Position numbers and translations under genes: made by a program. The notes under the pieces were generated by a model. The model did not search any database, was not told the DNA's origin, and saw nothing but the letters and a program-made list of their open reading frames with translations. This document shows, one piece after another, positions 2,011 through 57,298 of a stretch of DNA of 64,000 nt. The first letter of the stretch is position 1. Each line of letters begins with the position of its first letter. Source of the stretch: Thermoanaerobaculia bacterium (GTDB taxonomy: Bacteria > Acidobacteriota > Thermoanaerobaculia > Gp7-AA8); contig DASPNA010000078.1 in assembly GCA_035626775.1 (NCBI GenBank), forward strand, positions 42,771 through 106,770, read 5' to 3'.

Positions 2011-2046
2011 CCGCTCTCGTTGTGTGTGTCGATGCGATCGATCGCT

Positions 2047-2842: not shown

Positions 2843-2910
2843 GGGGCGCCTCCGCCAAGGTAGTGACCCGTGCGGCGGCCGCGTTTCATCGCACGGCTAT
2901 ACTCAAGACA

Positions 2911-20745: not shown

Positions 20746-20914
20746 TTTCAATAACGTTATGGTATAACGCCATAACGCTCAAAAGCGCCACGCTTTTCTT
20801 CGTGGTGGCCCTGCTGTTCGCTCTTTCCACACACACCTCTTGCTCACGAACAAAAACGACGGGCACGAAACGCCGGTGTGGGGTCTCGAGCCGGTTTGTG
20901 TGGTCAGCGCGTGT

Positions 20915-21103
20915 ATCGATCCACGTTTTCGCAACACGCTCCGTATCTACAGCACGATGCAGATGCGCGTCTCGGTCGCGGTAGGCAACGTCACGATTCT
21001 CGTCGAGCACCTCACGGTCCCGTTGCCGATCCAGACGTGGGCGTTCATTACCGTCGCCAACAACGAAACGCAGGCGATCTCCACGATCACGCCGCAGCCG
21101 TAA
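20915..21103 (+). pseudogene. C-terminal fragment of a third IPT-paralog copy
   Basis: IDPRFRNTLRIYST...WAFITVANNETQAISTITPQP* matches the C-termini of the two downstream paralogs. It is followed by the same GGAGAAGA-ttcgATG junction. Confidence 0.5.
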
Positions 21104-21117
21104 CGGAGAAGAATTCG

Positions 21118-22113
21118 ATGCGATTCACGATCAAGCTCACGCTCCTGACGCTGCTCGCGACGTTGCCGCTCGCGGCGCAAACGAGCTACACCATCACTCC
21201 GGACAACGGTCCCACCTCCGGCGGCACACACGTCACGATCAAGGGCGACTTCGGCCAATGGCCGTATAGCGTGGACTTCGGCGACATCTCTGTGCCCGCG
21301 ACTCGCGTTGATGAGCACACGTTGACGGCGATCACGCCGCCGCACATGCCGGGCCGAGTCGACGTCGTGATCTTCGAGTACGACATCGGCATCACGACCG
21401 ATCTCACGTTCGAGTACATCGGGACCATGCCGGATGACTATGCACGGTTGCTTCTTCCGGTGTTTACGCCGGCCGTGCACGGCGCGTTCGGCTCGATCTT
21501 CGTCAGCGACCTGCGCGTGCTCAATTACGGAGGCATGTCGGCATCGATCCACGGCCTGGTGGCGGATTGTGCGCCGGTGATTTGCATCCCCTCCGAAGGT
21601 CCGTACGACCTCAGCCCGGGATCGGAAACGACGAACTTCGTCCCGAATGGCAATCCCGGCCGATTCGTGTACGTGAAGAAGGACCAGGCCGTGGGGCTGG
21701 CGATGAATCTGCGCGTATACGACACGACACGCGAGGCGCTCAACTTCGGCACCGAGATCCCGATCGTGCGCGAAGACGAGATGCCGCTGAACCGCGTCGT
21801 CTTCACGGGCGTCCCGACCGACCCGCGTTTTCGAAACACTTTGCGCATCTATTCGACGTTCCCATTCACGGCGATCGTCACCGTGGGCAATCGCGCGCCG
21901 GTACGCGTGCGGATGTTGGACACGACCGGGATCTACGATCCGTCTTACGCGATCTTCGGTGACTTTCCGGCGGACGGAAATCCCGTGCGCGTGACGATCG
22001 ATGCGGAGCTCGACTTCCAGACGCTGCTGCCGGTCGACGTACCGATCTGGGCGATGATCACGGTCACGAATAACGAAACGCAGATGATCTCGACGATCAC
22101 TCCGCAACCGTAA
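21118..22113 (+). CDS. Secreted IPT/TIG-domain protein, paralog 1
   Basis: Signal peptide MRFTIKLTLLTLLATLPLAAQ, then ITPDNGPTSGGTHVTIKG (IPT-like). About 90% identical to the next gene. Confidence 0.8.
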   Translation: MRFTIKLTLLTLLATLPLAAQTSYTITPDNGPTSGGTHVTIKGDFGQWPYSVDFGDISVPATRVDEHTLTAITPPHMPGRVDVVIFEYDIGITTDLTFEYIGTMPDDYARLLLPVFTPAVHGAFGSIFVSDLRVLNYGGMSASIHGLVADCAPVICIPSEGPYDLSPGSETTNFVPNGNPGRFVYVKKDQAVGLAMNLRVYDTTREALNFGTEIPIVREDEMPLNRVVFTGVPTDPRFRNTLRIYSTFPFTAIVTVGNRAPVRVRMLDTTGIYDPSYAIFGDFPADGNPVRVTIDAELDFQTLLPVDVPIWAMITVTNNETQMISTITPQP

Positions 22114-22127
22114 TGGAGAAGATTTCG

Positions 22128-23123
22128 ATGCGACTTACGCTCAAGCTCACGTTCCTGGTGCTGCTCGCGACATCGCCACTCGCGGCGCAAACGAACTACA
22201 CGATCACTCCGGACAACGGTCCCACCTCAGGCGGCACACACGTCACCATCAAGGGCGACTTCGGCCAATGGCCGTATGGCGTGATCTTCGGCGGCGTCTC
22301 TGTGCCCGCGACGCGCGTCGATGAGCACACGTTGACCGCAGTCACGCCGCCGCACATGCCCGGCAAGGTGGAGGTCGTCATCTTCGAGTTCGACATCGGC
22401 ATCAACACCGATCTCACGTTCGACTACATCGGGCCGGTCCCGGATGACTACGCACGGTTGCTCCTGCCGGTATTCACGCCGCCGGTGCACGGCGCGTTCG
22501 GCTCGCTGTTCTTCAGCAATCTGCGCGTACTGAACTACGGAGGCGCGACAGCATCGATCTACGGGCTCGAAATGGTCTGCGCGCCGATCCTCTGCATCCC
22601 GTTCGAAGGTCCGTTCGACCTCGGCCCCGGCTCAGAATCGACGGACTTCGTCCCGAACGGCAATCCCGGCCGCTTCGTGTACGTGAAGAAGGATCAGGCC
22701 GTGGGGCTGGCGATGAATTTACGCGTGTACGACACGACGCGCGAAGCGCTCAACTTCGGCACCGAGATCCCGATCGTGCGCGAGGAGGAGATGCCGCTGA
22801 ACCGCGTCGTCTTCACGGGCGTCCCGACCGATCCGCGTTTTCGCAACACGCTGCGCATCTATTCGACGTTCCCATTCACGGCGATCGTGACGATCGGAAA
22901 TCGACCGCCGGTGCGCGTGCGGATGTCGGACACCAACGGCATTCACGATCCGTCGTACGCCCAGTTCGGCGACTTTCCGACCGACGGCAATCCAGTACGC
23001 GTGACGATCGACGCGGAGCTCGACTTCCAGACGCTGCTGCCGGTCGACGTACCGATCTGGGCGATGATCACGGTCACGAACAACGAAACGCAGATGATCT
23101 CGACGATCACGCCGCAACCGTGA
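22128..23123 (+). CDS. Secreted IPT/TIG-domain protein, paralog 2
   Basis: MRLTLKLTFLVLLATSPLAAQ...; tandem duplicate of 21118..22113. An alternative ATG at 22113 would overlap as TAATG. Confidence 0.8.
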   Translation: MRLTLKLTFLVLLATSPLAAQTNYTITPDNGPTSGGTHVTIKGDFGQWPYGVIFGGVSVPATRVDEHTLTAVTPPHMPGKVEVVIFEFDIGINTDLTFDYIGPVPDDYARLLLPVFTPPVHGAFGSLFFSNLRVLNYGGATASIYGLEMVCAPILCIPFEGPFDLGPGSESTDFVPNGNPGRFVYVKKDQAVGLAMNLRVYDTTREALNFGTEIPIVREEEMPLNRVVFTGVPTDPRFRNTLRIYSTFPFTAIVTIGNRPPVRVRMSDTNGIHDPSYAQFGDFPTDGNPVRVTIDAELDFQTLLPVDVPIWAMITVTNNETQMISTITPQP

Positions 23124-23220
23124 CGAGGGGTCCCTCGGGTTCCTCGGTTCCTCGGGTTCCTCGGTGGGATAGGTTGCCCAATCGCCCACCCCGAGGAACC
23201 CGAGGAACCCCGAGGAACCG
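23124..23220. repeat. Palindromic element family 1
   Basis: gaggggtccctcgggttcctcggttcctcgggttcctcgg ... ccgaggaacccgaggaaccccgaggaaccg, between convergent genes. Confidence 0.75.
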
Positions 23221-23224
23221 TTTT

Positions 23225-24523
23225 TCAGTCGCAAGGCCGGTCCGGCGTACACAGGACCGCCGGTGCGAGTGCGAGACCGGCGAATGGATTGATGGGGCGC
23301 GCGTGGCCGGCGCAGAGTCTGTCCTCTGACGGCACAGGAACCCAGATCCACCACTTTTCCGGCGTGCCGGAGAGTGAGCCGTACCAGACGCCGGACGCGG
23401 GGCCACTCGTCGACGATGGATGCAGTTCGCGAACGCGCGACACGTCGACGAGCTCCGGCTCCGACCATGTCGCCACCGTCGGATCGAGCGATGTCGCGGT
23501 CTGCGCGTGCATCACATCTGCGAACACATACGCGTGCAGCCAGCGGCCGTTGCCGAATTTCACGTCGCCCGCGCCGAAGCGGAAGCCGGCTTCCTGCACG
23601 CCGTTGTAGAGCTCGAGCACCGCGTTGCCTTCGTCAGGCGGCAACTGTGCGCCGGTCGGATCATCGTCGTACGCCCACACCAGTCTGCCGGAATGCGGCT
23701 GCCAGCGGCCTTCGAGAAAGATCTCGCGCACGCTGCCACCGAATCCAAACGGATGATCGGCGTTGTAATCGAAGCGATAGAGCACCGACGACAACGCGCG
23801 GTCGTAAGTCGGATTGGAACTGCGCGGATGGTAGTACTGGAAAAACACGTAGAAAAGACCGTTCTCGAATGCGACCTGCACCTGTCCGATGCCCGACGGC
23901 GATGTACACGCCGGCGCGCTGAACGGCGCATTCTCGGATTGCGTGTACTTCGCGTAGATCACCGGTCCCCAGTTTTCGGTTTCGGCAACGAGGCCGCGCG
24001 CATAGACCTCCCACACCTCACCGTCATTCGAAACCGCCCAATAGATCTTGCCGTGGATGAAATCGGCGTTGCCGCCGACGAAGGCCATGTAGTAACGGAC
24101 GCCGGTCGGGCTGTTTTCATTCGGCAGCCGGACGACCGACGGACTGGCAAGCGGCCCGGAGTGGAACCATGATTCGAATCCGCAGCGCCTGTACTGTCCG
24201 GTGATCGCGGGACAGACATTCGCGTAAGAGTCGACGTTCGCAGGCAACGTCCACGCGCCATCGAGGCCGTTGCGCGCGCCGCGGAAAAGCGTATCGAGCG
24301 CGACGTCGGTGCAGTAGTTCGGCGCCGCGGCCTGCGCCATGACTCCGAGATCGATCCCGTTCGGCAGGAGATGAATGTCGGGGTCGTACCAGGTGCGGCT
24401 GCACGTATTCGTGCCCGCTGGTGTGGCGATCGGGAGCGAGCGATAGATCGTGCCGATGGAGTACTGGGCGATTGCCTTCGATGAAAGCAGCAGCGCGATG
24501 CCGGCAATGACAACGCGGGACAT
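23225..24523 (-). CDS. Secreted hypothetical protein
   Basis: Signal peptide MSRVVIAGIALLLSSKAIAQ. 432-aa open frame, Trp/Tyr/Gly-rich. Confidence 0.6.
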   Translation of the reverse strand: MSRVVIAGIALLLSSKAIAQYSIGTIYRSLPIATPAGTNTCSRTWYDPDIHLLPNGIDLGVMAQAAAPNYCTDVALDTLFRGARNGLDGAWTLPANVDSYANVCPAITGQYRRCGFESWFHSGPLASPSVVRLPNENSPTGVRYYMAFVGGNADFIHGKIYWAVSNDGEVWEVYARGLVAETENWGPVIYAKYTQSENAPFSAPACTSPSGIGQVQVAFENGLFYVFFQYYHPRSSNPTYDRALSSVLYRFDYNADHPFGFGGSVREIFLEGRWQPHSGRLVWAYDDDPTGAQLPPDEGNAVLELYNGVQEAGFRFGAGDVKFGNGRWLHAYVFADVMHAQTATSLDPTVATWSEPELVDVSRVRELHPSSTSGPASGVWYGSLSGTPEKWWIWVPVPSEDRLCAGHARPINPFAGLALAPAVLCTPDRPCD

Positions 24524-24527
24524 GACT

Positions 24528-25553
24528 TTAGAAGAGTTTGCCTTCGTGCGCGCCGCCGAGCGGGTAGCCGAGATGCGCGTAGGCAGTACGGCTGGCGACG
24601 CGGCCGCGCGGCGTGCGTTGCAGGAAGCCGATCTGGATGAGGTAGGGCTCGTAGAGATCTTCGATCGTGCCGCGATCTTCGCCGATCGACGATGAGAGAG
24701 CGTTCACACCGACCGGGCCGCCGCGGAACCGCTCGATGATCGTCGTGAGCAGCTTGCGATCGATCTCGTCTAGGCCGTACTCATCGACCTCGAGCATGCT
24801 CAGCGCGCCGCGCGCAATCGCCACATCCACTCTCCCCTCATGCCGCACCTCGGCGAAATCACGAACGCGGCGCAGCAGACGATTGGCGATGCGAGGTGTC
24901 CCGCGGGAACGGCGTGCGATCTCCACGGCCGCTTCCGGAGCAACTGCGATGCCGAGGATGTCGGCGGAGCGGCTGACGATGACGGTGAGCGATTCGACGT
25001 CGTAGAAATCGAGGCGATGCACGATGCCGAATCGCGCGCGCAACGGCGCCGTCAATAGTCCCGCTCGCGTCGTTGCGCCAACCAGGGTGAAGCGCGGCAG
25101 CTCGACCTTGAGCGTGCGTGCGGCCGGACCCTGGCCGATGACGACGTCGACGTGAAAGTCTTCCATCGCGGAGTACAGCACTTCTTCGACGATGGGAGGC
25201 AGACGATGGATCTCGTCGATGAACAGCACGTCGCCTGCTTCGAGGTTCGTTACGATCGCGACGAGGTCGCCGGGCTTCTCCAGCGCCGGACCGGAGGTAG
25301 AGCGCATGCTCGCGTTCATCTCGTTCGCGATGATGTTCGCGAGCGTGGTCTTGCCGAGGCCGGGCGGGCCGAAGAGAAGTACGTGATCGAGCGATTCGCT
25401 GCGCTTGCGCGCGGCGCTCAATGAGATCTCGAGGTTCGCTTTGACCTTGTGCTGGCCGATGTACTCGCGCAGAAGGCGCGGCCGCAGCGAGAGCTCGGTC
25501 TGAAGATCTTCCTGGTCTGGTGTCGGAGCGAGGATGCGGTCGTCCGTGGTCAC
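24528..25553 (-). CDS. ruvB: Holliday junction branch-migration helicase
   Basis: [14 protein letters not shown] (Walker A) and DEIHRL, full RuvB length. Confidence 0.95.
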
Positions 25554-27232
25554 TGCGCCGTAGTGTAGCCGAGCGTCGATGATGCGGCCGCGGACGCAAC
25601 GCGCGTGGGCAGCGATACCGTGATCGAGCTGCCCGCGCCTTCGCTCGACGTCACGTCGATCTTCCCTCCATGCTCCTGCACGATGCGATACGAGATGGCC
25701 ATGCCCAGGCCGGTGCCGGTGGGAAAGTTCGTGCGGAAGGGCTGGAAGAGGCGGCGCAGATCGGCTTGCGACATGCCGCGGCCGTTGTCGGAGAACGTGA
25801 TGCGATACGAGCCGTCGACGACAGTCGTGCGGACGGTGAGCACACCACCTTGCGGCATGGCCTGCACCGCGTTGCGCGCCAGGTTCCAGAACACCTGGCG
25901 GATCTGGTCGGCATCGCCGACGAGATGGAACGACGGCGGATCGATGTCGCGGCGGATCTCATGATTGCGATGGAGCTCGGGCGAGTTCTGCAAAAGATCG
26001 AGCGTTTCGGAAAGGTTGGCTGCGACGTCGTACTCCAGCGCGCGTTTTTCCTGCGGACGGACGAAGCGGAGAAAGTCGGAGATCGATTTATTCAACCGCT
26101 CCGATTCTTTCAGCACGATCGACATGAGGCGCTGTTCCTGCGCGGTCAGTGACGTCGATCCTTTGAGCACTTGCACCGATCCTGCGATGGCGGCGAGCGG
26201 ATTTCGGATCTCGTGCGCGATGCCGGCGGACAGCTCGCCCACCGCGGCCATCCTGTCCTTGAGGCGAAGCTCGGCCTCGAGCTTCTTCATCTCGGTGAGG
26301 TCCTGAAAGATGAGCGTGTAGCCCGCGGCAGCACCTTCCAGCGTGCTGAGTGGACTGACCGCGAAGCCGATGTTTCGCGCCGCGCCGGCCACGGTCACGT
26401 CGTCGATCTCCTTGCGCACGACGACACCCGCCGCGAGCTCTTCCCGTGCCTCGTTCCAGTGGTCCATGTCCAGAAAACCGAGCTCCGTCACGTGCCGGCC
26501 GAGAATCGCTTGCGGTTCCATCTGCAGGATCTGCGAGCCGGCGGGATTCACGAACGATGCGGTGCCGAACGACGAGAGCGTGATGAGGCCGGACGGGATC
26601 GATTCGACGACGTTCTGATTGAGCGCGCGGAGCTCGGCGAGGTTCTGGCGATTCGCATCGAGCTCGCGCGCGGTGCGCTGCAATTGTTCGGAGAGATACG
26701 ACGTGAGCAGCGCGGTCGCGTAGAAGCCGAGGAAGTTCGCGGCCATGTTGAAGTAGAGGCGCGAGGCGGACCAGTCGATCTCCAGCGACTGCGACTGCGC
26801 GGGCATCGGCAGCACGCGGTAGTAGAGAAGGTCGACCAGAACGCCGTAAAGGATCACCGCGCCCGATGCGGCGAGCAAACCGCCGCGCCGATAGAGCAGC
26901 ATCGACGCGGTGATGATCGAGACGAGATAGAGAAACGAGAACGGGGAATCGAGTCCGCCGGTAAAGTAGACCAGTAGTGTCTCGACGAGCAGATCGCCGG
27001 CGATCTGGATCATCACGTTCACGGCGCGCGACGGGACCGTAAAAGCGAGCCCGATGTAGAGGAGCGTGAGCGCGTACGTCACGCCGGCGGCGATGTAGAG
27101 GTAGTCGATGGGCAGGACTTCGCCGACCGTGTATTGAATGATGAGCGCGGCCAGCAGCAGCGTGGTGACGACGACCACGCGGACCGCGATGAGCATGCGG
27201 GTGTCGCTGGACATGGTCGGCACGCGACTCAT
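25550..27232 (-). CDS. Sensor histidine kinase (N-terminal TM region, PAS, HisKA, HATPase)
   Basis: [11 protein letters not shown]-box plus a G-x-G-L-G ATPase block. ATG at 27232. 4-nt overlap with ruvB. The extension to 27310 in the ORF track is repeat-derived. Confidence 0.85.
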
Positions 27233-27236
27233 GGTA

Positions 27237-27342
27237 ACCCTCGCCCCGCTTGCGGGGAGAGGGTGGCGCGCAGCGCCGGGTGAGGGGGACCCCTCATCCG
27301 CCTGCGGCACCTTCTCCCCTCGCGGAGGGGAGAAGGCTACCT
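27237..27342. repeat. Palindromic element family 4, permuted or tandem-partial arrangement
   Basis: ccctcgccccgcttgcggggagagggtggc...ccgggtgaggggg acccctcatccgcctgcggcaccttctcccctcgcggaggggagaaggctac. Confidence 0.7.
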
Positions 27343-27351
27343 GGGCGGCGT

Positions 27352-28554
27352 CTATCCGATCTGCGAGATCAGCGAGAACATCGGCATGTACATCGCGATG
27401 ACGATGCCGCCGATGGCGACGCCGAGGAAGGCGATCAGGACCGGCTCGAGGAGTTTCATGAGGCCGGCCACCGCGAGATCGACTTCGTCCTCGTAAAAGT
27501 CGGCGATTTTCGAAAGCATCGTGTCGAGCGCACCGGTCTGCTCGCCGACCGCGATCATCTGCACGACCATCGGCGGGAACACTTCGGTGTCACCGAGCGG
27601 CTCGCTGATCGTCTTGCCCTCTTCGACCGACTTGCGCGTGGCCATGATCGCGTCCTCGATGATTGAATTGCCGGCGGTGCGCGCCGTGATCTGCAGGCCG
27701 TCGAGGATCGGAACGCCCGACGAAGTCAGCGTCGACAACGTGCGGCAGAAACGGGCCACGGCGATCTTGCGCAGCAGCATGCCCAGGACCGGCGCGCGCA
27801 GCAGCAACCCGTCGATGACGCGCTTCCCTTTGTACGTCTCGCGATACTTGCGCACTGCGTAGACGGCGACGATGGCCAGGATGGTGATGAGCCACCAGAA
27901 GTCGCCGATGAAGTTCGACATCGCGATGACGACGCGCGTCGGCAGCGGCAGCTCCGCGCCGAGGCTGGCAAAGAGGGAGGCGAACACCGGGATGACCTTC
28001 CAGAGAATGATCATCACGACGATGACGGCGATGCTGATGACGGCGACCGGATAGATCATCGCCGACTTCACCTGTGAGTTCAGCTTGACCGACTTTTCGA
28101 TGTAGGTGGCCAGGCGCTGCAGGATGGTGTCGAGGATACCGCCCGCCTCACCGGCGGCGACCATGTTCGTGTAGAGATCGTTGAAGACCTTGGGGTGCTT
28201 GCGCATCGCGTCGGCGAGGTTGGAGCCGGACTCGACGTCCTGCCGCACCTGGATCAGCGTGCGCTTGAAAGCCTTGTGATCCTGCTGCGAACCGAGGATC
28301 TCCAGACACTGCACGAGTGGGAGACCGGCGTCGATCATGACCGAGAACTGGCGCGTGAAGATCGCCACCGACTGGGCCGGAACGCCGCCGCCGAACTTCG
28401 GCAGCGCGATCTCCTTCCCTTTTTCCTTGACGGCGGTGACGACGATCTGCTGCCGCCGCATCATGTTGATGACGGCGTCTTTCGAGTCGGCCACCAGCAC
28501 ACCTGTCTGCGTCTGACCGTTTCTCGCTGTGCCCTTCCACTCGAATGTCGGCAT
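27352..28554 (-). CDS. pilC: Type IV pilus assembly platform protein (GspF family)
   Basis: 400 aa. Two GspF-type repeats and three TM segments. Confidence 0.9.
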   Translation of the reverse strand: MPTFEWKGTARNGQTQTGVLVADSKDAVINMMRRQQIVVTAVKEKGKEIALPKFGGGVPAQSVAIFTRQFSVMIDAGLPLVQCLEILGSQQDHKAFKRTLIQVRQDVESGSNLADAMRKHPKVFNDLYTNMVAAGEAGGILDTILQRLATYIEKSVKLNSQVKSAMIYPVAVISIAVIVVMIILWKVIPVFASLFASLGAELPLPTRVVIAMSNFIGDFWWLITILAIVAVYAVRKYRETYKGKRVIDGLLLRAPVLGMLLRKIAVARFCRTLSTLTSSGVPILDGLQITARTAGNSIIEDAIMATRKSVEEGKTISEPLGDTEVFPPMVVQMIAVGEQTGALDTMLSKIADFYEDEVDLAVAGLMKLLEPVLIAFLGVAIGGIVIAMYMPMFSLISQIG

Positions 28555-28571
28555 CGTTTCCTCCCATCGCC

Positions 28572-28637
28572 CTGGAGCGACGGGCTCTCAGCCCGTCGAG
28601 CCCTGCATTTCGACGGGCCGAGAGCCCGTCGCTCCAG
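28572..28637. repeat. Palindromic element family 3, full copy
   Basis: ctggagcgacgggctctcagcccgtcg agccctgcatttcga cgggccgagagcccgtcgctccag. Confidence 0.75.
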
Positions 28638-28651
28638 TTCAGCTCCCGATT

Positions 28652-29779
28652 TTACGCCGGTCTTGGTCTCGCGCCCGCCGACGCAGGCGGACCCTGCGGG
28701 ACGATGGCGCCCGCGCCGCGCGAGATCATCTCCTGCAGCTCGTCCGGATTGGACGAGCGCGCCAACGCGGTCTGCAACGTGATCAGCTTCTTGAAGTACA
28801 GGGTCGCCAGCGACTGATTGAACGTCTGCATGCCGTACTTCGCCTGTCCGGTCTGCATCATCGAGTAGATCTGATGCACCTTGTCTTCACGGATGAGGTT
28901 GCGGATGGCGGGGTTCGGTACGAGGATCTCCATGGCCATGGCGCGGCCTTTTCCGTTCGCCTTGGGCAACAACGCCTGGCAGAGGATGCCTTCCAGCACG
29001 AACGACAACTGCGCGCGGATCTGCGGCTGCTGGTGCGCGGGAAAGACGTCGACGACGCGGTTGATCGTCTGCGCGGCCGAGTTCGTGTGCAGCGTGCCGA
29101 ACGTGAGGTGGCCCGTTTCGGCGATGCGCAGCGCCGACTCGATGGTCTCGAGGTCGCGCATCTCGCCGATGAGTACCACGTCGGGATCCTGACGCAGGGC
29201 GGACTTCAGCGAGTTGCCGAACGAGTGCGTATCGGCGTGCAGCTCGCGCTGGTTGACGATGCAGCTCTTGTGTTGATGGAGGAACTCGACCGGATCTTCG
29301 ATGGTGATGATGTGCTGATGGGTCTCGCGATTGATCTTGTCGATCATCGCGGCGAGCGTCGTCGATTTGCCCGAGCCGGTCGGACCGGTGACGAGCACGA
29401 GGCCGCGCGGCTTGCTGCAGATCTCTTCGACGACCGGCGGCAGTCCGAGCTCCTTGAAGCCGAGGATCTCGTACGGAATCTGCCGGTAGACCGCGGCCGT
29501 CGCGCCGCGCTGGTTGAAGATGTTCGCGCGGAAGCGCGCCAGCCCCTTGATGCCGAACGAAAGGTCGAGCTCGAGGTTTTCCTCGAAGCGATGCTTCTGC
29601 GCGTCGGTGAGCACCGAATACGCGAGCTGCTTGGTCTCCGGCGCGGTGAGCGGCGGGATGTCGAGCGGCACCAGCTTGCCGTCGATGCGAATCTGCGGAG
29701 GGGAGTTGGTCGTGACGTGGAGGTCGGAGCCTCCGCGCTCGACCATCGTCTTGAGGAGCTGGTGCAGTGTGATGGCCAT
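28652..29779 (-). CDS. pilT: Type IV pilus retraction ATPase
   Basis: MAITLHQLLKTMVERGGSDLH..., GPTGSGKSTTLAAMI (Walker A). ATG at 29779. The upstream ORF extension is derived from the AT-rich palindrome. Confidence 0.9.
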   Translation of the reverse strand: MAITLHQLLKTMVERGGSDLHVTTNSPPQIRIDGKLVPLDIPPLTAPETKQLAYSVLTDAQKHRFEENLELDLSFGIKGLARFRANIFNQRGATAAVYRQIPYEILGFKELGLPPVVEEICSKPRGLVLVTGPTGSGKSTTLAAMIDKINRETHQHIITIEDPVEFLHQHKSCIVNQRELHADTHSFGNSLKSALRQDPDVVLIGEMRDLETIESALRIAETGHLTFGTLHTNSAAQTINRVVDVFPAHQQPQIRAQLSFVLEGILCQALLPKANGKGRAMAMEILVPNPAIRNLIREDKVHQIYSMMQTGQAKYGMQTFNQSLATLYFKKLITLQTALARSSNPDELQEMISRGAGAIVPQGPPASAGARPRPA

Positions 29780-29815
29780 TGGTCCTGTCTCTCCAGTGCT
29801 ACATGCTTCGCGAGT

Positions 29816-29918
29816 GGAAATTGAAAATTGAAAATTGAAAATTGAAAAATCGGACTCCGGGTCGCGCGAGGCACCGACTTTCGTTTTTTCAATTTTCAAT
29901 TTTCAATTTTCAATTTCG
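29816..29918. repeat. AT-rich palindrome, (GAAAATT)x4 ... (CAATTTT)x4, family 5
   Basis: ggaaattgaaaattgaaaattgaaaattgaaaaatcgg ... ccgactttcgttttttcaattttcaattttcaattttcaatttcg. A stem of about 33 bp, between pilB and pilT. Confidence 0.8.
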
Positions 29919-29925
29919 TTTTCTC

Positions 29926-31641
29926 CTAAGCGACCGTCTCGCGAACGACTTCCTCGACGGTGGTCATACCTTCCTTGATTTTAATCAGCCCGGAGCGGCG
30001 CAGCGTGATCATGCCGTTCTCGATGGCCTTCTTCTTGATGTCGATGGCGGTGCCGCCTGCGAGAATGAGGTCGCGGATGTCGTCATCGATCTGCATGACT
30101 TCGATGAGACCGACGCGGCCTTTGTAGCCCGTGTTGTTGCACTTCTCGCAGCCTCGGCCTTTGTAAATCGTGAACGTCCCCACTTCCTCTTTCTTGTAGC
30201 CGAGGTTGGCGACGGCCTGATTGGTCATGTCGACGGCCTCCTTGCAGTTGGCGCAGATGCGCCGCACGAGACGCTGTGCGGCGATGAGCTGCGTCGCGGT
30301 GGCCACCAGGAAGGGCTCGATGCCCATGTTCATGAGGCGGTTGATGGTCGAGGGCGCGTCGTTCGTGTGCAGCGTCGACAGCACGAGGTGACCGGTCAGC
30401 GCAGCCTTGATCGCGATCTCCGCGGTTTCGAAGTCGCGGATCTCGCCGACCAGGATGATGTTCGGATCCTGGCGCAGGAACGAGCGCAGCGTGGCCGCGA
30501 AGTTGAGGCCGATCTGCTCCTTCATCTGCACCTGGTTGATCCCCGGCAGGTTGAACTCGACCGGATCTTCGGCGGTCATGATGTTCACTTCGGGCGAATT
30601 CACCTTCGAAAGTGCCGAGTACAGCGTGTTGGTCTTGCCCGAGCCGGTCGGCCCGGTGACGAGCACCATGCCCCACGGCTTGAAGATCGCTTCCTCGAAG
30701 CGCACGAGCGATTCCGGCTCGAATCCGAGCTTGGTCATGTCGAGACGGAGGTTGTCCTTGTCGAGCAGCCGCATGACGATCTTCTCGCCGAAGAGCGTCG
30801 GCAGCACCGAGACGCGGAAATCGAGCTCCTTGTTCTTGTCCTCGAGCTTGATCTTCAGCTTGATGCGGCCGTCCTGCGGCAGGCGCTTCTCCGAGATGTC
30901 GAGCTTCGAGAGAATCTTCATGCGCGAGGTCATGGCGTCCTTCAGCTTCAAGGGCGGATTCATGATCTCGTACAGGATGCCGTCGATGCGGAAGCGGACG
31001 CGATACTCCTTCTCGTACGGCTCGATGTGGATGTCGGAAGCACCGCGCTTGATGGCATCGGTAAGAATCAGGTTGCACAGCTTGACGACCGGCGCCTCCT
31101 CGGCGGAATCCGCGAGGGCGCTGACATCCATCTCCTCGTCTTCCTCGAGCACTTCGAGGTCGGCGCTCTCCTGGGTCTGAAGGTCTTCCATGACCTTCTT
31201 CAGCTCGAGCGAGGAAGTGGTGCCGTAGTAACTGTCGATGGCGGCCTTGATCCCGAGCTCGGAAGCTACGACCGGCTCGACGTTGTAGCCGGTCATGAAC
31301 TTGATGTCGTCCATGGCGAAGACGTTCGTCGGATCGGCCATGGCGATGGTGATCGTGGCGCCGGTCTTGTTGACCGGGAGGATGTTGTACTTGCGGGCGA
31401 CGTCGCCGGGGATCAGCTTGATCACGCCGGCGTCGATCTCGAAGTGCTGGAGGTTGATCGACGGCACACCGAACTGCTGGCTGAGGCACTCGGTGATGTC
31501 TTCTTCGGAGACGAAGCCGAGCTTGATCAGCGTTTCGCCGAGCTTGCCGCCGGTCTCCTTCTGGACGCGGAGCGCTTCCTTGAGCTGATCCTGCGAGATC
31601 AGGCTCGCTTTGGTGAGCAACTCACCGAGACGGACACTCAT
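29926..31641 (-). CDS. pilB: Type IV pilus assembly ATPase (GspE family)
   Basis: N-terminal GSPII_E_N-like domain, GPTGSGKTNTLYSAL Walker A, and a CxxC...CxxC tetracysteine motif. Confidence 0.9.
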   Translation of the reverse strand: MSVRLGELLTKASLISQDQLKEALRVQKETGGKLGETLIKLGFVSEEDITECLSQQFGVPSINLQHFEIDAGVIKLIPGDVARKYNILPVNKTGATITIAMADPTNVFAMDDIKFMTGYNVEPVVASELGIKAAIDSYYGTTSSLELKKVMEDLQTQESADLEVLEEDEEMDVSALADSAEEAPVVKLCNLILTDAIKRGASDIHIEPYEKEYRVRFRIDGILYEIMNPPLKLKDAMTSRMKILSKLDISEKRLPQDGRIKLKIKLEDKNKELDFRVSVLPTLFGEKIVMRLLDKDNLRLDMTKLGFEPESLVRFEEAIFKPWGMVLVTGPTGSGKTNTLYSALSKVNSPEVNIMTAEDPVEFNLPGINQVQMKEQIGLNFAATLRSFLRQDPNIILVGEIRDFETAEIAIKAALTGHLVLSTLHTNDAPSTINRLMNMGIEPFLVATATQLIAAQRLVRRICANCKEAVDMTNQAVANLGYKKEEVGTFTIYKGRGCEKCNNTGYKGRVGLIEVMQIDDDIRDLILAGGTAIDIKKKAIENGMITLRRSGLIKIKEGMTTVEEVVRETVA

Positions 31642-31752
31642 ACTTTTTTTTCTTTGACTCCCGAGGTGAACCTGCTCGCCCGGAACCGACCGGCGAGTTT
31701 AGCACCCGTGGTCGCGGGCGCGGACGGACCAGCGAGTTATTTTAACTGCACG

Positions 31753-32490
31753 TCAGCGCGGCAGCGGCGGCGGGTCACTGGCCGTCACGCCCTCGGTGAC
31801 TTTGTTGAGCGTCGCGGTGATGCTGCCGAACTTCACTTCGGTACGAATGCGCAGCGGCAGACGGCGCTCGTCATCGGAGTACCAGATGAACAGCTTCTCT
31901 TCGCGCTGCACGCCGGCGCTGGCCATCTGCGGCTCCACCAGCAGCGCGTTGAACGTGCCAAGCGGCGTCGTGATCTGCTCGCGCTTCACCACGTTGCCGT
32001 ACACGGTGTAGAGCTTGCCGCCGTCGATCAGTTTCAATTCATACGACTTCCCGGGTGCGAGCTCGAGCGTCCGGAAGTAATAGATGACGGAGATGGGATC
32101 GAAGATCGGACGGGGCACCGGCGTCTTGCGGATCTTCTTCCGCTTGCGAGACGCGACGCCGTCTTCGATGGTGATGGTCTCGCGCATCTTGTCGCCGCGC
32201 TCGTCGAGGCTCTTCACGATCTTGATGGTGGAAAAGTCTTCGCGCGCGACGGTGGTCTCGATCTCGTCCCGGATGCGGAAGAGGCGGCCCAGACCACCCC
32301 CGGACTTGGCCACGGAAGTGATGCGATAGTGCGCGTCGTCGTGCGGCGAGATGGTCATGCGCGCGGTACCGCCCGTGACCTTCATCCAGGTGACGGTGAA
32401 GTCGAGCGTCTCTCCTGCCTCGTACGTATCGTGGAGCGGACCGGCGATGGACGCGGAAACCGCGAAGAGAACCGCGAGCGCAAAAGTCAC
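31753..32490 (-). CDS. DUF3108-family protein
   Basis: Signal-peptide-like N-terminus and DUF3108-like size and composition. 4-nt overlap with the upstream GT9 gene. Confidence 0.65.
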   Translation of the reverse strand: MTFALAVLFAVSASIAGPLHDTYEAGETLDFTVTWMKVTGGTARMTISPHDDAHYRITSVAKSGGGLGRLFRIRDEIETTVAREDFSTIKIVKSLDERGDKMRETITIEDGVASRKRKKIRKTPVPRPIFDPISVIYYFRTLELAPGKSYELKLIDGGKLYTVYGNVVKREQITTPLGTFNALLVEPQMASAGVQREEKLFIWYSDDERRLPLRIRTEVKFGSITATLNKVTEGVTASDPPPLPR

Positions 32491-33407
32491 TCCGCGGTGA
32501 CCCTTCCCAGCATCGTCATCACCTCTTCAACACTTATCGAGTCCATCCATTTCGTGGTGGAAAAACGGTCGATGCAATGTTGCAGTTGGTGATACGGACC
32601 GTTGCGCCGTGGATTGGTCGGGCCGTAGAGGCCGATGACCTTCGTCCCGAGCGCGTCCGCGAGGTGCAGCGGGCCGGTGTCGCCGCCGATGACGACCTCT
32701 GCACTTTGGAGCAGACCTGCAAGCTCACGCAGGTTCGTCGACGGCGCGATACGAGCTCCGATCGCTTCCGCGAGCTCCCGTTCTCCCGGCCCCCACGCCG
32801 CGACCGCGCGCGGACCGATGCGCTTTGCGAGCTCGCGAAAACGCTCGACGGGCCACAGTTTGTTGGCCTTTCCGGCACCCGGGAGCAGGACGATGGAGTT
32901 TTCATAGCCAGGAACCGGAACCGCGAAATCGTCCCAATTCTGGAGCGACGGGCTCTCAGCCCGTCGGGTCTCGAGGTCGACCGGCTGAGAGCCCGTCGCT
33001 CCAGATGCGAGCTGCAGGTTTTGATCGATGACGTGCGACGCCGCATCGACACGTACGTGGCGGTTCGTGAACAGGAGCGCGGCTTTCTCGCGGATGGCGT
33101 GGCGATCGAATCCGTATCGCGTTTTCGCACCTGACAACCATCCGAGCGCCGCCGATTTGATCAGTCCCTGAAAGTCGACAGATGCATCGAAGCCGCGCGC
33201 GCTGCGAATCGCGCGAATGGCAGCTCGCGGTTCTTTCTTCATGCGCACCGGCAGCACCTCCACACCCGCGACGATCTCCACGAGCTCGCGATACGGCGCT
33301 TCGACGACCCACGTGACGTCCGCCGCGTTCTTGAGCGACACGACCGCGGGGATGGTGTGAATGACGTCGCCGAGTGCTGACAGACGAAGGACGAGCAGAC
33401 GGCTCAT
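32487..33407 (-). CDS. Glycosyltransferase family 9 (ADP-heptose:LPS heptosyltransferase-like)
   Basis: [22 protein letters not shown]...[24 protein letters not shown] (GT9 signature). ATGA overlap with hldC at 33404-33407. Contains an in-frame family-3 repeat. Confidence 0.8.
32940..33004. repeat. Palindromic element family 3, full copy embedded in-frame within the GT9 CDS
   Basis: ctggagcgacgggctctcagcccgtcg ggtctcgaggtcgac cggctgagagcccgtcgctccag. Translated on the minus strand as [21 protein letters not shown]. Confidence 0.75.
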
Positions 33408-33877
33408 CGCGCCCGCAATTTCTGGAGCACTGCGGTCGTCGAATGGTCCTTCGGGTCGCCGACGATTGCCACGCGTCCGCCATAGGACCGCACGATCTCG
33501 GCTTCCGGCACGGAGTCGGCCGTGTAGTCGGTGCCTTTGCACTGCACGTCGGGCCGCAACGTCTGCAGCAAGCGGCCGGGATTCTCCTCGCGAAAGATCG
33601 TGACGTACGCGACACCGCGAATCGCCGCAATGATCTCGGCGCGTTCGTCCTCCGGCATCACAGGCCGCCCCTCGCCTTTCAGCCTGCGCACCGATTCATC
33701 GCCGTTGACGCCGACCACGAGCACGTCCGCTTCGCGTGCCGCATCCTGCAGATAGCGGATGTGGCCGACGTGCAGCACATCGAAACAACCATTCGCGAAC
33801 GCGATCGATTTGCCGTTCGCACGCTCTTGCGCGAGCGCATCGACCAGCGCTTGCTCATCGAGGATCCGAGCGTTCAT
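33404..33877 (-). CDS. hldC: D-glycero-beta-D-manno-heptose 1-phosphate adenylyltransferase (RfaE domain II)
   Basis: [18 protein letters not shown], the cytidylyltransferase HxGH motif. Confidence 0.85.
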
Positions 33878-34890
33878 TCATTCAACTCTTCGTCGCGCTG
33901 AATCGCGTGCGCGAGCTCGTCGTTCGACACCGTTGCCGTCCCCATCTTCATCACCACGATCCCGCCCGCATAGTTCGCGAGCTTTGCCGCTTCCGCGAAC
34001 GACGCACCAGCCGCGAGTCCAAGCGTGAACGTGGCGATGACCGTATCTCCTGCGCCCGTGACATCGGCCACCTGATCGGTGCCCGACACCGGAATCAACA
34101 AAGGCGCACTCGCATCCCGCTCCAGCAACGCCATTCCTCGGCTCCCCCGAGTGATCAGCACCGCATCGCAATCGAGGCCCTGCTGCAGCTTGCGCGCGAC
34201 GCCGCCGACCTTCTCTTCCTCGCCGTTCCATAGCGATGTGCCCGCGGCGGCAGCGGCTTCCTCTTCGTTCGGCGTCGCCGCGGTCACGCCGCGATAGCTG
34301 AGCAGGTCGTAGCGCGAATCGAGCGTGACCGCTTTTCCGTCCGCGCGCGCCGTCAGCTCCGCGACCACGGACGGGCGCACGACCCCGTATCCGTAGTCGC
34401 TGACGAGCGCCGCGTGGCTGTTCGCGATCGCGTTGCGCAGGATGGCCGTGAAGTGTTGCGCTTCTTCGTCCGTCATGACGAACTTGTCTTCGATGTCGTA
34501 GCGCACGATCTGCTGCCGGCTCGCGTGCGGCATGCCGCCGAGGATGCGTACTTTGGTCGGCGTGTCGTAGCGGTCGGTGCGCTGGATGCCGTCGCACGAG
34601 ATGCCGTTCGACGAGAGATGCGCGACGAGCGTGTGCGCCGCGGAATCATTGCCGAGCACCGACACCGGCACCGGCAATGCGCCGAGGGCGTGGATGTTGT
34701 TGATGGCGTTGCCGGCGCCGCCGAGGAGGATGTCGTCGCGGTACTGGCGGAGGATGAGCACCGGCGCCTCGCGCGAGATGCGCTTCGGCGTGCCGTAGAT
34801 GAAACGGTCCGCTACGATGTCGCCGTAGACGACGACCAGCTTCCCCTTCATCGCTTCCGTGAGCTGCAACAGGCGGGAGCGGCTGAACAC
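33874..34890 (-). CDS. hldA: D-glycero-beta-D-manno-heptose-7-phosphate kinase (RfaE domain I, PfkB family)
   Basis: PfkB kinase motifs (GGAGNA..., DVTGAGDT). 4-nt overlap with hldC. Confidence 0.85.
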
Positions 34891-34906
34891 GCGGGGAGTC
34901 TAAACG

Positions 34907-35095
34907 ATGACTGACGAACGGCGCTTGATCGAAGGTGTGGACTTTTACCGCGAGGGACCGTACGTCGTATTCACGGAGAAGTATCTGCGCGAGCGCGGAT
35001 ACTGTTGCGAGTCAGGCTGCCGGCATTGTCCGTATGGGTTCAGCAAGGACCAGCGCAGTGACGTGCCGTGGGAACGCCGCCGTCCCGGCGGCTGA
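34907..35095 (+). CDS. Small Cys-rich protein (DUF5522-like)
   Basis: MTDERRLIEGVDFYREGPYVVFTEKYLRERGYCCESGCRHCPYGF. Confidence 0.5.
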   Translation: MTDERRLIEGVDFYREGPYVVFTEKYLRERGYCCESGCRHCPYGFSKDQRSDVPWERRRPGG

Positions 35096-35145
35096 GCGGG
35101 CGGCGTCTCGCCGCCGTCCCCCTCCCGCGGCGAGACGCCGCGTGC

Positions 35146-35622
35146 TCAGCCGGCGGGGACGCCGGCGTTCCGCAGGTCGGCTTCGCGTAGTTCCACCTTC
35201 TCGTCGCTCGTGAGCACGTTCTCGACGTCGATCAGCAGATAGACCTCTTCGCCGAACGGAATCACCGCGATGAGCAACTCGCCGCGGATGCCGCGAATGA
35301 GCGGCGGCGGCGGGAGGAGCGTGTCGGGCCCCACGTTCACGATGCGCCGCACTTCATCGACTTTCAGGCCGATCACGCCGGCGCTGGTGTGCGTGATCAG
35401 CACCAGCGGCTCGGGCTTGGACTCGAGCTTCGGATAAAGACGCTGGCGCAGGTCGATGATCGGAATCACTTCGTTGCGCAGCACGACGATGCCTTCGATG
35501 AACGCGGGCGCGGTCGGTACCGTGGTCGAGCCGGCGTACGGCACGATCTGCCGCACGGCCATGATGTCGAGCACGAACGTCTCCGGCCCGACGCGGAACG
35601 TGATCATGCGCAGGTCGGCCAT
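35146..35622 (-). CDS. cheW: Chemotaxis coupling protein
   Basis: 158 aa CheW-like domain (…FRVGPETFVLDIMAVRQIV…). Confidence 0.85.
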   Translation of the reverse strand: MADLRMITFRVGPETFVLDIMAVRQIVPYAGSTTVPTAPAFIEGIVVLRNEVIPIIDLRQRLYPKLESKPEPLVLITHTSAGVIGLKVDEVRRIVNVGPDTLLPPPPLIRGIRGELLIAVIPFGEEVYLLIDVENVLTSDEKVELREADLRNAGVPAG

Positions 35623-35628
35623 GACGGA

Positions 35629-37704
35629 TCAGCCCCTGACGCGGAACTTCCTGACTTCACTTTCGAGGCTGCGAATCGCGTCGTTGAGGAGCGTGATGGC
35701 CTCGCTCATGTCGCTCGCCGTGGAACGGTTGCCTTCGGCGATCGCGCGGACCTGCTGCATCGTGGCGACGATCTTCTCGGACTCCGACGACTGATCGGCG
35801 GCGACCTGGAAAATCTCGTGGATCATCTCGATCATCCGCTCCGCGGCCGCCGAGATCATCGACGATCCCGACTTCTGTTCGACCATCGCCTGGCGCACGT
35901 ACTTGGTCACTTCGCGCATCGATTCGACGGCGCGCATGATGTGATCCGAGCCCTGCGCCTGCTGGCGCGTCGCGGCGTTGATCTGGCCGACCATCGACTG
36001 CAACCGCTCGACGGCGCGCGTCACGGTTTCGCTGCCGATGGCCTGCTCGCGCGTCGCGTTCGCGATCTCTTTGCCCATGTTCGAGGCCTTCGACGCCGAG
36101 TCGAGAATGTTGTTCAGTGCTTTGCCCGCTTCATGGGAAAGCGCGACGCCGTTCTCGACGAGCGATGAGCCGGCGGACGTCGCCTTGAGCGCGTTATCGA
36201 CCTCTTCCTGCACGCCGCGAATGAGATTGGCGATGTCGCGCGTCGACGAGGCCGTCCGCTCCGAGAGGTCGCGAATCTCGGCCGCGACGACGGAGAAGCC
36301 TTTGCCGTATTCGCCTGCCTGCGCCGCGAGAATGGCCGCGTTCAGCGCGAGCAGGTTCGTCTGCTCCGCGACGTCTTCGATCACGTTCAGGATCTTGCCG
36401 ATGGCAACGGAACGATCGCCGAGGCGCGAGACGACGGAGTTCGCTTCGACGACGGACTGGCGAATCTGCTCCATGCCGTCGATCGTCTCGCGCACCGCGT
36501 TCATCCCCGACTCCGCTGCGTCGGCTACGGCGAGCGCGAGATCGTACGAGCGCGCCGCGTTCACCTCCACCTCCGCGATCGACGCGGACATCTCCACCAT
36601 CGACGATGACGTGTCGGTGACGAACGTCGTGAGGTAGACGACGTTCTGATCGACTTCGCTGATCGAAGACACCATCTGATGGGTTGCCGACGCGGTGTCT
36701 TCGACGGACGTGAAAAGCGTGTCGGTGTGGCGGCTCACTTCCTCCATCGACGCGACCATCTCGAGCATCGACGATGACGTCTCTTCCGACGATGCCGAAA
36801 GCGCCTCGACGTTGTCGGTGATCTTGCGAACGCCGCCGTTGAGCTGATCGATGGAGAGATACGTCTCGTCGATGACGGAGCGCTGTTCGTCTACACGTGC
36901 GATGACGAGACGCGAGCGGCTGTCCACTGTCTCGACCACGGACTTCAGCTTCGCCTGCGACTGCATCAGGTTCCTGACCGTCCGCTCGAGATCGCTCGCC
37001 ATCGCGTTGAACGCCTCGGCGAGACTGCCGATCTCGTCGGTCGTGCCGACTTCCGCGCGCTGCGTGAGGTCGCCTTTCGCGATCTGCCGCGCCGAGGTCA
37101 CGAGCGCGAGGATCGGCCGCACGATCAGCATCGATGCGAACCACGCCAGCAGACTCGCAAGCGCGAGCACGACGGCGGTGATGCCGAGGTTCATTCGGAA
37201 AAGAGAGGTGAGTGCACTTTGCGCCTGCGACTCGTTCATCAGCAGGCGAAAGTGGCCCTTCGGCGCTCCTGTCGCGGCACCCGTTTCGAAGAATGGCACG
37301 GTGTACACATGGTGCCCTTCGCCGACCAGCGCTCCTTCTTCCGCGCGAATCTCGCGACTCGTGAGGGTCGCGGGGAGTTCCGCTTTCGACGCGGCGAGGA
37401 TCTTTCCGCTGCCGTCGCGGAACTCCGCGTACTCGACGGATGGATTCGTCGCGAGCTTGTTGACGATCGCCTTCAGATCGTCGGTGAGGCCGAAGATCAC
37501 GTAGTAACCGGCGGTCGCTTCGATCGTGCGCGAGATCGCGGAGCCCTGCTCCACGGTCTGCCGGATCATCGCGCGCCGCACGAGATACTGCTGCAGCAGC
37601 AACAGCAACAGCGCGATGAGGATGGTGCCGGTGGCGAACACGAGCACGAACTTGGAGCGCAGGCCGAACCGCACACCTTCGTCATTCTGATTCTCGACCG
37701 CCAT
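35629..37704 (-). CDS. Methyl-accepting chemotaxis protein with HAMP domains
   Basis: N-terminal TM segment, HAMP, and a long MCP signalling domain with repeated ...SSS..E.S.SM.EM... heptads. Confidence 0.85.
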   Translation of the reverse strand: MAVENQNDEGVRFGLRSKFVLVFATGTILIALLLLLLQQYLVRRAMIRQTVEQGSAISRTIEATAGYYVIFGLTDDLKAIVNKLATNPSVEYAEFRDGSGKILAASKAELPATLTSREIRAEEGALVGEGHHVYTVPFFETGAATGAPKGHFRLLMNESQAQSALTSLFRMNLGITAVVLALASLLAWFASMLIVRPILALVTSARQIAKGDLTQRAEVGTTDEIGSLAEAFNAMASDLERTVRNLMQSQAKLKSVVETVDSRSRLVIARVDEQRSVIDETYLSIDQLNGGVRKITDNVEALSASSEETSSSMLEMVASMEEVSRHTDTLFTSVEDTASATHQMVSSISEVDQNVVYLTTFVTDTSSSMVEMSASIAEVEVNAARSYDLALAVADAAESGMNAVRETIDGMEQIRQSVVEANSVVSRLGDRSVAIGKILNVIEDVAEQTNLLALNAAILAAQAGEYGKGFSVVAAEIRDLSERTASSTRDIANLIRGVQEEVDNALKATSAGSSLVENGVALSHEAGKALNNILDSASKASNMGKEIANATREQAIGSETVTRAVERLQSMVGQINAATRQQAQGSDHIMRAVESMREVTKYVRQAMVEQKSGSSMISAAAERMIEMIHEIFQVAADQSSESEKIVATMQQVRAIAEGNRSTASDMSEAITLLNDAIRSLESEVRKFRVRG

Positions 37705-57294: not shown

Positions 57295-57298
57295 TGTG

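Follow-up and report, generated by a model that had tools for sequence, protein, structure and literature searches.

The question raised by this locus is whether palindromic repeats that occupy successive gaps in a run of bacterial pilus genes belong to the operon, as punctuation of its message, or are settlers from dispersed families. The locus lies in a 64,000-nucleotide (nt) stretch, hereafter the window, of contig DASPNA010000078.1 (assembly GCA_035626775.1, positions 42,771 to 106,770 of the forward strand) from a Thermoanaerobaculia bacterium of the phylum Acidobacteriota. Here two genes for heptose activation (hldA and hldC), genes for a GT9 heptosyltransferase and a DUF3108 protein, pilB, pilT, pilC, a PilS-type histidine kinase gene and ruvB follow one another on the minus strand. 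A reading made from the sequence alone had claimed a repeat in every gap of the array and had proposed that the repeats act as inter-cistronic punctuation, such as terminators or RNase sites. Our analysis favours a different answer, which as a whole we consider probable: the intergenic spaces have been colonised by several dispersed families of palindromes, three unrelated ones having come to lie in the pilB-pilT-pilC-kinase gaps. The three gap elements are members of dispersed, at least partly mobile palindromic families, are lineage-specific, and sit just 3' of stop codons.

Three palindromes in the gaps of the pilus genes

The elements named in the sequence-only reading are all found where it placed them, between pilB and pilT, pilT and pilC, and pilC and the kinase gene:

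29817-29917, pilB/pilT gap: AT-rich tandem-heptamer palindrome, (AAATTGA)x4.4, a 35-nt GC-rich spacer and (TTTTCAA)x4.4
28572-28637, pilT/pilC gap: family-3 inverted doublet of repetitive extragenic palindromic (REP) units, REPIN-like, 66 nt, consisting of CTGGAG plus hairpin CGACGGGCTCTCAGCCCGTCG, a 10-nt spacer and an inverted copy
about 27233-27341, pilC/kinase gap: family-4 dimer of two variant units of ~52 nt, GGTAGCCTTCTCCCCTCCGCGAGGGGAGAAGGTGCCGCAGGCGGATGAGGGGT and an inverted variant

The AT-rich palindrome lies 8 nt past the pilB stop and 37 nt ahead of the pilT ATG, and RNA of this gap folds at -49.5 kcal/mol (z = -6.25 against shuffled sequence, as for the other gaps). The doublet lies 14 nt past the pilT stop and 17 nt ahead of the pilC ATG (-67.8 kcal/mol, z = -8.97), and the family-4 dimer occupies the pilC/kinase gap, 2-10 nt past the pilC stop and flush with the kinase ATG (-81.2 kcal/mol, z = -5.9). 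If transcribed, all three would form long, near-perfect hairpins with arms of 28-33 nt. Their location, a few bases past the upstream stop, is one where insertion spares the genes.

A repeat in every gap is more than the array holds. In the DUF3108/pilB gap, of 111 nt, there is no repeat, and folding is unremarkable (z = -0.7). We also rejected the idea that the array is unusually rich in repeats: dispersed repeats are present in 10 of the 27 window gaps of at least 40 nt, with three of four in the array against seven of 23 elsewhere (Fisher p = 0.13). At gathering thresholds Rfam gave no match anywhere in the window, and a permissive E-value scan of 27100-31800 yielded nothing but miRNA-hairpin noise far below threshold and NsiR8 at 24 bits (gathering score 61), matches that we dismissed as chance. 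An assembly artefact was likewise rejected, because JGI assemblies made independently of one another have the same palindrome at one and the same site, with related palindromes in NCBI and ENA assemblies.

The same gaps in related genomes

Synteny with relatives, which had been suggested as a check on the punctuation idea, separates the genes from the elements. Our comparison set comprised the window and ten related contigs, 11 genomes in all (compared loci outside the window, mostly of related DNA, carry the prefix L). Gene order is identical in all ten relatives, in which PilC is 90-96% and the DNA 79-89% identical to the window. The elements at pilB/pilT and pilT/pilC are not conserved, and only the gap after pilC has a hairpin throughout.

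Between pilB and pilT, a tandem-heptamer palindrome is found in six of the 11 genomes, five being of an AATTGAA type and one of an unrelated CAGCTCK type, while in the five genomes that have no palindrome the gap measures 19-39 nt. Orthologues of the window palindrome are present in L001, L004, L005 and L184, and in L001 a concerted A-to-G change has affected both arms. Six of the 30 pairs of this stem have been altered on both sides with pairing retained, but given that the comparison includes four sequences only, and that the arms may have evolved in concert, the paired changes are no proof of selection on RNA structure. The REP doublet between pilT and pilC occurs in the window alone: L004 has a CAGCTCK palindrome at this site, L005 a degenerate REP-like hairpin, and the remaining eight genomes a gap of 23-51 nt with no element. 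The family-3 and family-4 insertions in these gaps are limited to the lineage of the window, and being lineage-specific, they are not conserved or built-in parts of the operon.

The heptose genes offer a parallel case. Nine genomes cover the hldA/hldC junction; five of them show a 4-nt overlap (ATGA or GTGA) there, and L186 has a 28-nt remnant. In three relatives a GT-rich/AC-rich heptamer palindrome takes up precisely the space from the hldA stop to the hldC ATG:

L003, 4661-4765: hldA/hldC palindrome
L005, 4614-4693: hldA/hldC palindrome
L006, 4776-4860: hldA/hldC palindrome

No Shine-Dalgarno sequence or other ribosome-binding site is found ahead of hldC in these three genomes, and their HldA and HldC proteins are intact. 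This arrangement suggests either that the hairpin leaves translational coupling in place or that hldC is expressed at a lower level.

The pilC/kinase gap differs from all of these. A strong hairpin is present in 11 of 11 genomes (z = -2.2 to -9.4), built from at least seven unrelated sequences, among them the 11-bp GC stem of L007 and various palindromic elements. The hairpin after pilC is structurally conserved and its sequence is not, which fits a need for some hairpin at this position; selection has likely acted on the pilC/kinase hairpin alone.

These comparisons bear directly on whether all three repeats were selected as operon punctuation that sets the pilB:pilT:pilC:kinase ratio by termination or processing. 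Such a design would account for strong hairpins directly past stop codons, for the compensatory changes that hold the pilB/pilT stem paired in four genomes, and for the constant hairpin after pilC. We nevertheless judge it unlikely, since the same genes do without the pilB/pilT element in five of 11 genomes and without the pilT/pilC element in eight of 11. Further, the array is not enriched relative to the rest of the window, the same families occur within genes and between divergent genes, the hairpins lack a U-tract, and the sole boundary that looks regulatory, DUF3108/pilB, has a promoter-like motif and no repeat. Of the punctuation idea there remains one gap, pilC/kinase, where the recurrence of a hairpin in every genome makes it plausible; as a general design it lacks support.

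Family 3 is a dispersed REP

If the gap elements are settlers, their relatives should be found elsewhere, and for family 3 this is readily seen. The window holds four copies, two of them within genes. A doublet is an inverted pair of 27-nt REPs, with arms of 28 nt that are 96% complementary and a spacer of 10-11 nt. The unit is a short imperfect palindrome with many dispersed copies, as in REPs, and the inverted pair with its short spacer makes a single long hairpin, as in REPINs. The three copies outside the pilT/pilC gap are:

32940-33006: doublet in frame within the interdomain linker of the GT9 gene (fold -63.6 kcal/mol, z = -8.0)
48522-48583: doublet in frame within tsaD (open reading frame 48225-49280), with ~16 residues added relative to PDB 3zet
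15733-15799: doublet of 67 nt exactly between the convergent stops of a D-Ala-D-Ala-ligase-like gene and a UbiA prenyltransferase gene

The copy in GT9 was not part of the sequence-only reading. It gives the linker ~20 residues more than in L006; L007 is shorter there too, and L005 has a recognisable copy. The GT9 and tsaD doublets are read in the same frame (G-x-T-G-S-Q-P ... A-E-S-P-x-x-Q), and the intragenic doublets lengthen a linker or loop by about 16-22 residues, in one case in TsaD, the essential tRNA-t6A enzyme. At the ligase/UbiA (ddl/UbiA) site, the stop codons abut in L002 with zero gap and no element.

Beyond the window, at least 25 copies were found in 182 kb of a related metagenome-assembled genome (MAG). 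A scan with the 19-nt core across one genome per species gave, for SMAG_U3424, at least 23 among the 56 loci listed; the single locus of SMAG_U3424 that overlaps the window is ~83% identical to it. In the related MAG loci the element is found singly and as doublets joined head to head or tail to tail. Copies keep the CTGGAG tail, and the stems differ by compensatory changes (for example GCGACGGGC versus GTGCCGGGC).

The organisation of REPs and REPINs has been described by Bertels & Rainey 2011 (PMC3116915) and Di Nocera 2013 (PMC3733652), and family 3 resembles it closely: a short hairpin whose 5' tail is conserved, singletons and both dimer orientations, compensatory stem variation, and copies that lie near the 3' ends of upstream open reading frames, with some intragenic and in frame. 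The differences are that the tail is CTGGAG rather than GTAG, that two of the four window copies are within genes, and that no cognate REP-associated tyrosine transposase (RAYT) was found in the scanned DNA of the clade. The 3' end of the stem (CCCGTCG) does include CGTC, but the remaining traits of the CGTC superfamily, A/T at the first stem positions and a loop of 4-5 nt, are not clearly matched.

A RAYT was seen only in L060, a Chloroflexota MAG, in a scan that covered a small part of any Thermoanaerobaculia genome. The L060 gene (CALDFY010000347.1, ~2020-3110; PF01797) has on both flanks arrays in which two hairpins alternate. One hairpin, GACGGGCTCTCAGCCCGTC, is identical to the 19-nt REP core of Thermoanaerobaculia family 3, though the CTGGAG tail is not shared; the identity could be convergence or a distant relationship. 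Among the best 120 homologues of this RAYT, every organism name given is from the Chloroflexota, most entries having no name, and we did not accept it as evidence for a RAYT in Thermoanaerobaculia. Family 3 behaves as a classical REP. Membership of a REPIN-RAYT system is unproven for this clade, because the RAYT was seen only in the Chloroflexota MAG and the tail is not shared.

Family 4, the source of the pilC/kinase element, is a REP-like hairpin unit of ~52 nt that occurs mostly as inverted dimers. In addition to ~27233-27341 it is present in the window at two loci, and copies outside the window are found in L003, L042 and L186:

10461-10514: family-4 locus
57206-57295: family-4 locus

Palindromes built of tandem units

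The AT-rich element between pilB and pilT belongs to a further class. The window contains six palindromes whose arms consist of 3-5 tandem units of 7-9 nt, drawn from three unit families: AAATTGA (one copy), GAGTCTCA (two copies) and GGTTCCTCG (three copies). The five tandem 8- or 9-mer palindromes of the latter two families are:

11860-11944: tandem-unit palindrome
12535-12627: tandem-unit palindrome
23128-23219: tandem 9-mer palindrome, (GGGTTCCTC)n ... (CCCGAGGAA)n, at the convergent ends of a gene for a 432-residue protein and a TIG-domain gene
49329-49477: tandem-unit palindrome in a divergent promoter region
60328-60419: tandem-unit palindrome

The palindrome at 23128-23219 folds at -69.6 kcal/mol (z = -5.9) and shares its unit family with those at 11860-11944 and 60328-60419. 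Next to two of these palindromes, in a long gap, there is also a tandem repeat with an 80-nt period (12054-12358, 3.8 copies, ~75% identity).

Relatives carry the same unit families together with CAGCTCK, GTTGCTG, GTTGTCR, AGGTCTT and a GTCCTATNG 9-mer. The AT-rich AAATTGA type has a second copy at another locus in L004 and one copy in L019, and a metagenome scan for the GAGTCTCA family gave at least 120 stretches. Within one unit family the arms match and most loops are unrelated. There are informative exceptions: L082 and L095 have an identical 24-nt loop between unrelated flanks, with differing numbers of arm units, and the pair L017 and L045 is similar in this respect; the loops of L067 and L103 are 85% alike, and further loci show 75-85%. 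Shared loops with unrelated flanks mean that these palindromes copy as whole units, and in having terminal inverted repeats and whole-element copies at unrelated loci they resemble MITEs (miniature transposable elements with inverted repeats). Whole elements are copied, arm length shifts by slippage and loops diverge quickly, and the two arms of one element evolve in concert.

The alternative is that tandem-unit palindromes are immobile and arose in place, by replication slippage and template-switch inverted duplication. Differences in arm-unit number between copies and the prevalence of unrelated loops would follow naturally from such an origin, and heptamers are, according to Mrazek 2007 (cited in PMC4679880), reportedly the commonest long simple-sequence repeat class in bacteria. 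Yet many unrelated loci, in several species, have the same 7-9-nt units, and loops that are identical or 85% similar lie in unrelated flanks; slippage accounts for changes in arm length, not for dispersal. We accordingly consider origin in place quite improbable, and rejected the related proposal that the arm families are convergent products of slippage, given the identical loops at unrelated loci.

For a wider view of where these elements lie, we took a census with an inverted-repeat finder combined with arm periodicity. It yielded 107 tandem-unit palindromes in 934 kb of clade DNA, or ~1 per 10 kb, in a sample biased towards repeat-bearing loci. By position they are distributed as follows:

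co-directional gaps: 65
convergent gaps: 13
divergent gaps: 14
intragenic (by rough gene calls): 10
locus edges: 5

In co-directional gaps the palindrome starts at a median of 8 nt past the upstream stop, compared with at least 30 nt ahead of the next start. This 3'-of-stop bias points to constraint or tolerance at the level of the transcript, and so bears on the possibility that the elements act as DNA rather than RNA, by binding a nucleoid, gyrase or IHF-like protein, or as signals related to cruciforms or to replication. Binding of gyrase and IHF by the BIME/REP elements of E. coli is a precedent, and occurrence between divergent genes would also suit an action on DNA. Against this stand the strong bias in co-directional gaps and the diversity of the elements, for at least eight unrelated units would demand many different proteins; we regard a DNA-level role as very improbable.

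On the reading we favour, that of colonisation by mobile families, the tandem-unit palindromes are a clade-wide class of miniature foldback-like elements, with 3-6 units of 7-9 nt per arm and variable loops. A bolder version would make them an undescribed Thermoanaerobaculia superfamily of miniature foldback elements, with at least eight cross-species unit families and with insertion exactly between stop and start codons, in which the pilC/kinase hairpin is selected as punctuation and mobile palindromes serve as its raw material. We advance this combined proposal tentatively, as a possibility about which doubt predominates.

Two small observations concern the unit AACGATG and a small DUF5522 gene. 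In L002 (3516-3757) inverted (AACGATG)n arrays stand on either side of this gene, making of it a "loop" of 182 nt, and its start codon is overlapped by the repeated ATGAACG units. The AACGATG unit is also present in L005 (3358-3405), as a compact palindrome adjoining the DUF5522 gene.

A conserved, repeat-free region ahead of pilB

The one gap of the run from DUF3108 to the kinase gene that carries no repeat is the following:

31642-31752, minus strand: DUF3108/pilB gap, 111 nt, repeat-free, with motif TGnTAnACTCGCC at 31692-31704 and an AGGAG ribosome-binding site

The window sequence TGCTAAACTCGCC (31692-31704, minus strand) matches motif TGnTAnACTCGCC. In all eight aligned genomes the specified positions of the motif are unchanged, and the ribosome-binding site likewise keeps its GGAG core. 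In most of the eight a small covarying hairpin stands just before the motif. TGnTAnACTCGCC resembles an extended -10 element and may serve the pilus genes as a promoter of that kind or as an operator; the gap as a whole is the probable pilB promoter and 5' untranslated region. With an invariant promoter-like motif in a repeat-free gap, the heptose module is probably transcribed separately from the pilus module. A promoter consensus scan gave nothing above shuffle expectation; its single promoter-like match within the AT-rich palindrome was set aside, as it is on the antisense strand.

What the hairpins might do to the message

Palindromic repeats that are transcribed within operons have precedents. 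Correia/NEMIS elements of Neisseria, ERIC elements of Yersinia and REP/BIME elements of E. coli alter mRNA stability, processing by RNase III or RNase E, and partial termination, and REP-type elements with known effects on mRNA are placed just past the upstream stop codon. From work by Liang, Rudd and Deutscher, a REP reportedly affects translation of the upstream gene when it lies within ~15 nt of its stop. The sequences of these elements are unrelated to those described here, and the likeness would be one of palindromic form and of transcription within operons.

On the explanation we favour, the heptose genes would form a single translationally coupled unit, and pilB would have its own conserved promoter-like region, kept free of repeats. 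Transcription of the pil genes would pass through the elements and give long, near-perfect mRNA hairpins, which may act as barriers to 3' exonucleases, as leaky terminators or as RNase III substrates, leaving the message of the upstream cistron more stable than that of the downstream one. The post-pilC hairpin alone would be under selection, as the 3' end or an attenuator of the pilBTC message, its sequence being repeatedly swapped for whichever palindromic element had inserted.

Several points weigh against this explanation. No U-tract follows any of the three hairpins, as an intrinsic terminator would have; the sequences past the 3' arms are CCACTCGCG, GGCGATGGG and ATGAGTCGC. On the minus strand of 23000-36000 a scan for terminators gave no site, and overall it counted no more sites than in shuffles. 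Some 13% of the tandem-unit palindromes lie between divergent genes, where a role at a 3' end is impossible. The recurrence of hairpins between pilC and the kinase gene could reflect an insertion hot spot, with for example a pre-existing hairpin as the target, and not selection. As to mobility, no target-site duplication is visible at the two sites that could be compared filled and empty (pilB/pilT and ddl/UbiA), and no transposase could be linked to any family in a scan of ~1.2 Mb for HUH/Y motifs. Finally, the extended -10 call rests on likeness to the general bacterial consensus, which may not be that of this phylum.

Relation to known elements

The phenomenon is the familiar one of REP- or MITE-like colonisation of intergenic space, in a lineage where it is apparently undescribed: our literature search found no description of these repeats for Acidobacteria, nor of bacterial "foldback" elements. 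The tandem-unit foldback-like palindromes are apparently a new structural variant.

The nearest bacterial likeness to the tandem-unit palindromes is to the inverted GGGAATC heptamer pairs of Xanthomonas (Rehm et al. 2015, PMC4692102), intergenic arrays of some four units that lie nearer the upstream open reading frame. Both the Xanthomonas pairs and the cyanobacterial STRR heptamers share with our elements an organisation of about four tandem heptamers in convergent arms with stem-loop potential. Like the Xanthomonas pairs, the present elements are intergenic, nearer the upstream open reading frame, and not conserved at the same genes across related species. They differ from the pairs in comprising at least eight unit families of 7-9 nt, none of which is of the G-rich, G-quadruplex-prone kind. 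Whole-element copies with identical loops, as seen here, are not evident in the available text of PMC4692102.

Eukaryotic foldback transposons (Drosophila FB and Galileo; PMC3573991) are similar in their tandem-repeat arms, variable arm length and variable or unrelated centre. The elements here are ~100 bp rather than kilobases long, are bacterial, and have no known transposase, so that the likeness is structural only. The in-frame doublets in the GT9 linker and in TsaD recall Rickettsia palindromic elements and intragenic REPs (PMC3733652); the Rickettsia elements belong to another lineage and have another sequence, and the likeness is limited to the intragenic copies and does not extend to those in gaps.

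Should hairpins of this sort shape the pil mRNA, they would offer, in a phylum where genetics hardly exists, a cheap and fast-evolving means of setting the amounts of extension ATPase, retraction ATPase, platform protein and sensor kinase relative to one another. Eleven genomes that have the same genes with differing hairpins or none constitute a natural experiment on whether REP/MITE-like elements are domesticated as punctuation or tolerated. There are practical consequences too, in that tandem-unit palindromes can break assemblies and gene calls, and that copies of the REP family are placed in frame within essential genes such as tsaD. The multi-family tandem-unit palindromes merit genome-wide study.

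The gene array and its surroundings

The genes of the array were identified by Pfam and NCBIfam searches, and all are on the minus strand, in agreement with the sequence-only reading:

33874-34890, minus: hldA-like heptose-7-phosphate kinase of the PfkB family (Pfam PF00294; NCBIfam rfaE_dom_I 285 bits, cut-off 345)
33404-33877, minus: hldC-like heptose-1-phosphate adenylyltransferase (Pfam PF01467; rfaE_dom_II 177 bits, cut-off 181.5)
32487-33407, minus: GT9 heptosyltransferase-I-like gene (Pfam PF01075; TIGR02193 179.9 bits, cut-off 185.3)
31753-32490, minus: DUF3108 protein gene (Pfam PF11306)
29926-31641, minus: pilB, type IVa pilus assembly ATPase with MshEN domain (TIGR02538 798 bits, cut-off 675.65; Pfam)
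28652-29779, minus: pilT, PilT/PilU-family retraction ATPase (TIGR01420 505 bits, cut-off 319)
27352-28554, minus: pilC, pilus platform protein, T2SSF (Pfam PF00482, twice)
25550-27232, minus: PilS-type sensor histidine kinase (6TM_PilS, PAS, HisKA and HATPase_c; Pfam)
24528-25553, minus: ruvB (NF000868 513 bits, cut-off 282), with a 4-nt overlap with the kinase stop
23225-24523, minus: open reading frame of 432 residues, the final gene of the co-directional run

PilB, PilT and RuvB score above the curated NCBIfam cut-offs and the three heptose proteins slightly below them. The 4-nt overlaps that had been read between the first four genes are borne out by the sequence itself: ATGA for hldA/hldC, ATGA for hldC/GT9 and GTGA for GT9/DUF3108. 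PilC is 100% identical to an NCBI protein labelled Thermoanaerobaculia bacterium (Acidobacteriota), and the G+C content of the window is 61-67% in 1-kb windows. The 432-residue protein had no match in Pfam or NCBIfam searches; an orthologue is found downstream of ruvB in L001, L003, L005 and L186.

Three minor features of the surroundings may be recorded. The PilS-type kinase gene is followed directly by ruvB (24528-27232) and not by a pilR response regulator, and this order is the same in all relatives. Three tandem paralogues of ~1010 nt lie at 20878-23123, at least the last with an IPT/TIG domain; they are 81-88% identical over the compared stretches, and their copy number varies from 0 to 3 among relatives. 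A GC-rich hairpin with 31-nt arms, outside every repeat family, is found at 35084-35157, where the DUF5522 gene and the next gene on the minus strand converge.

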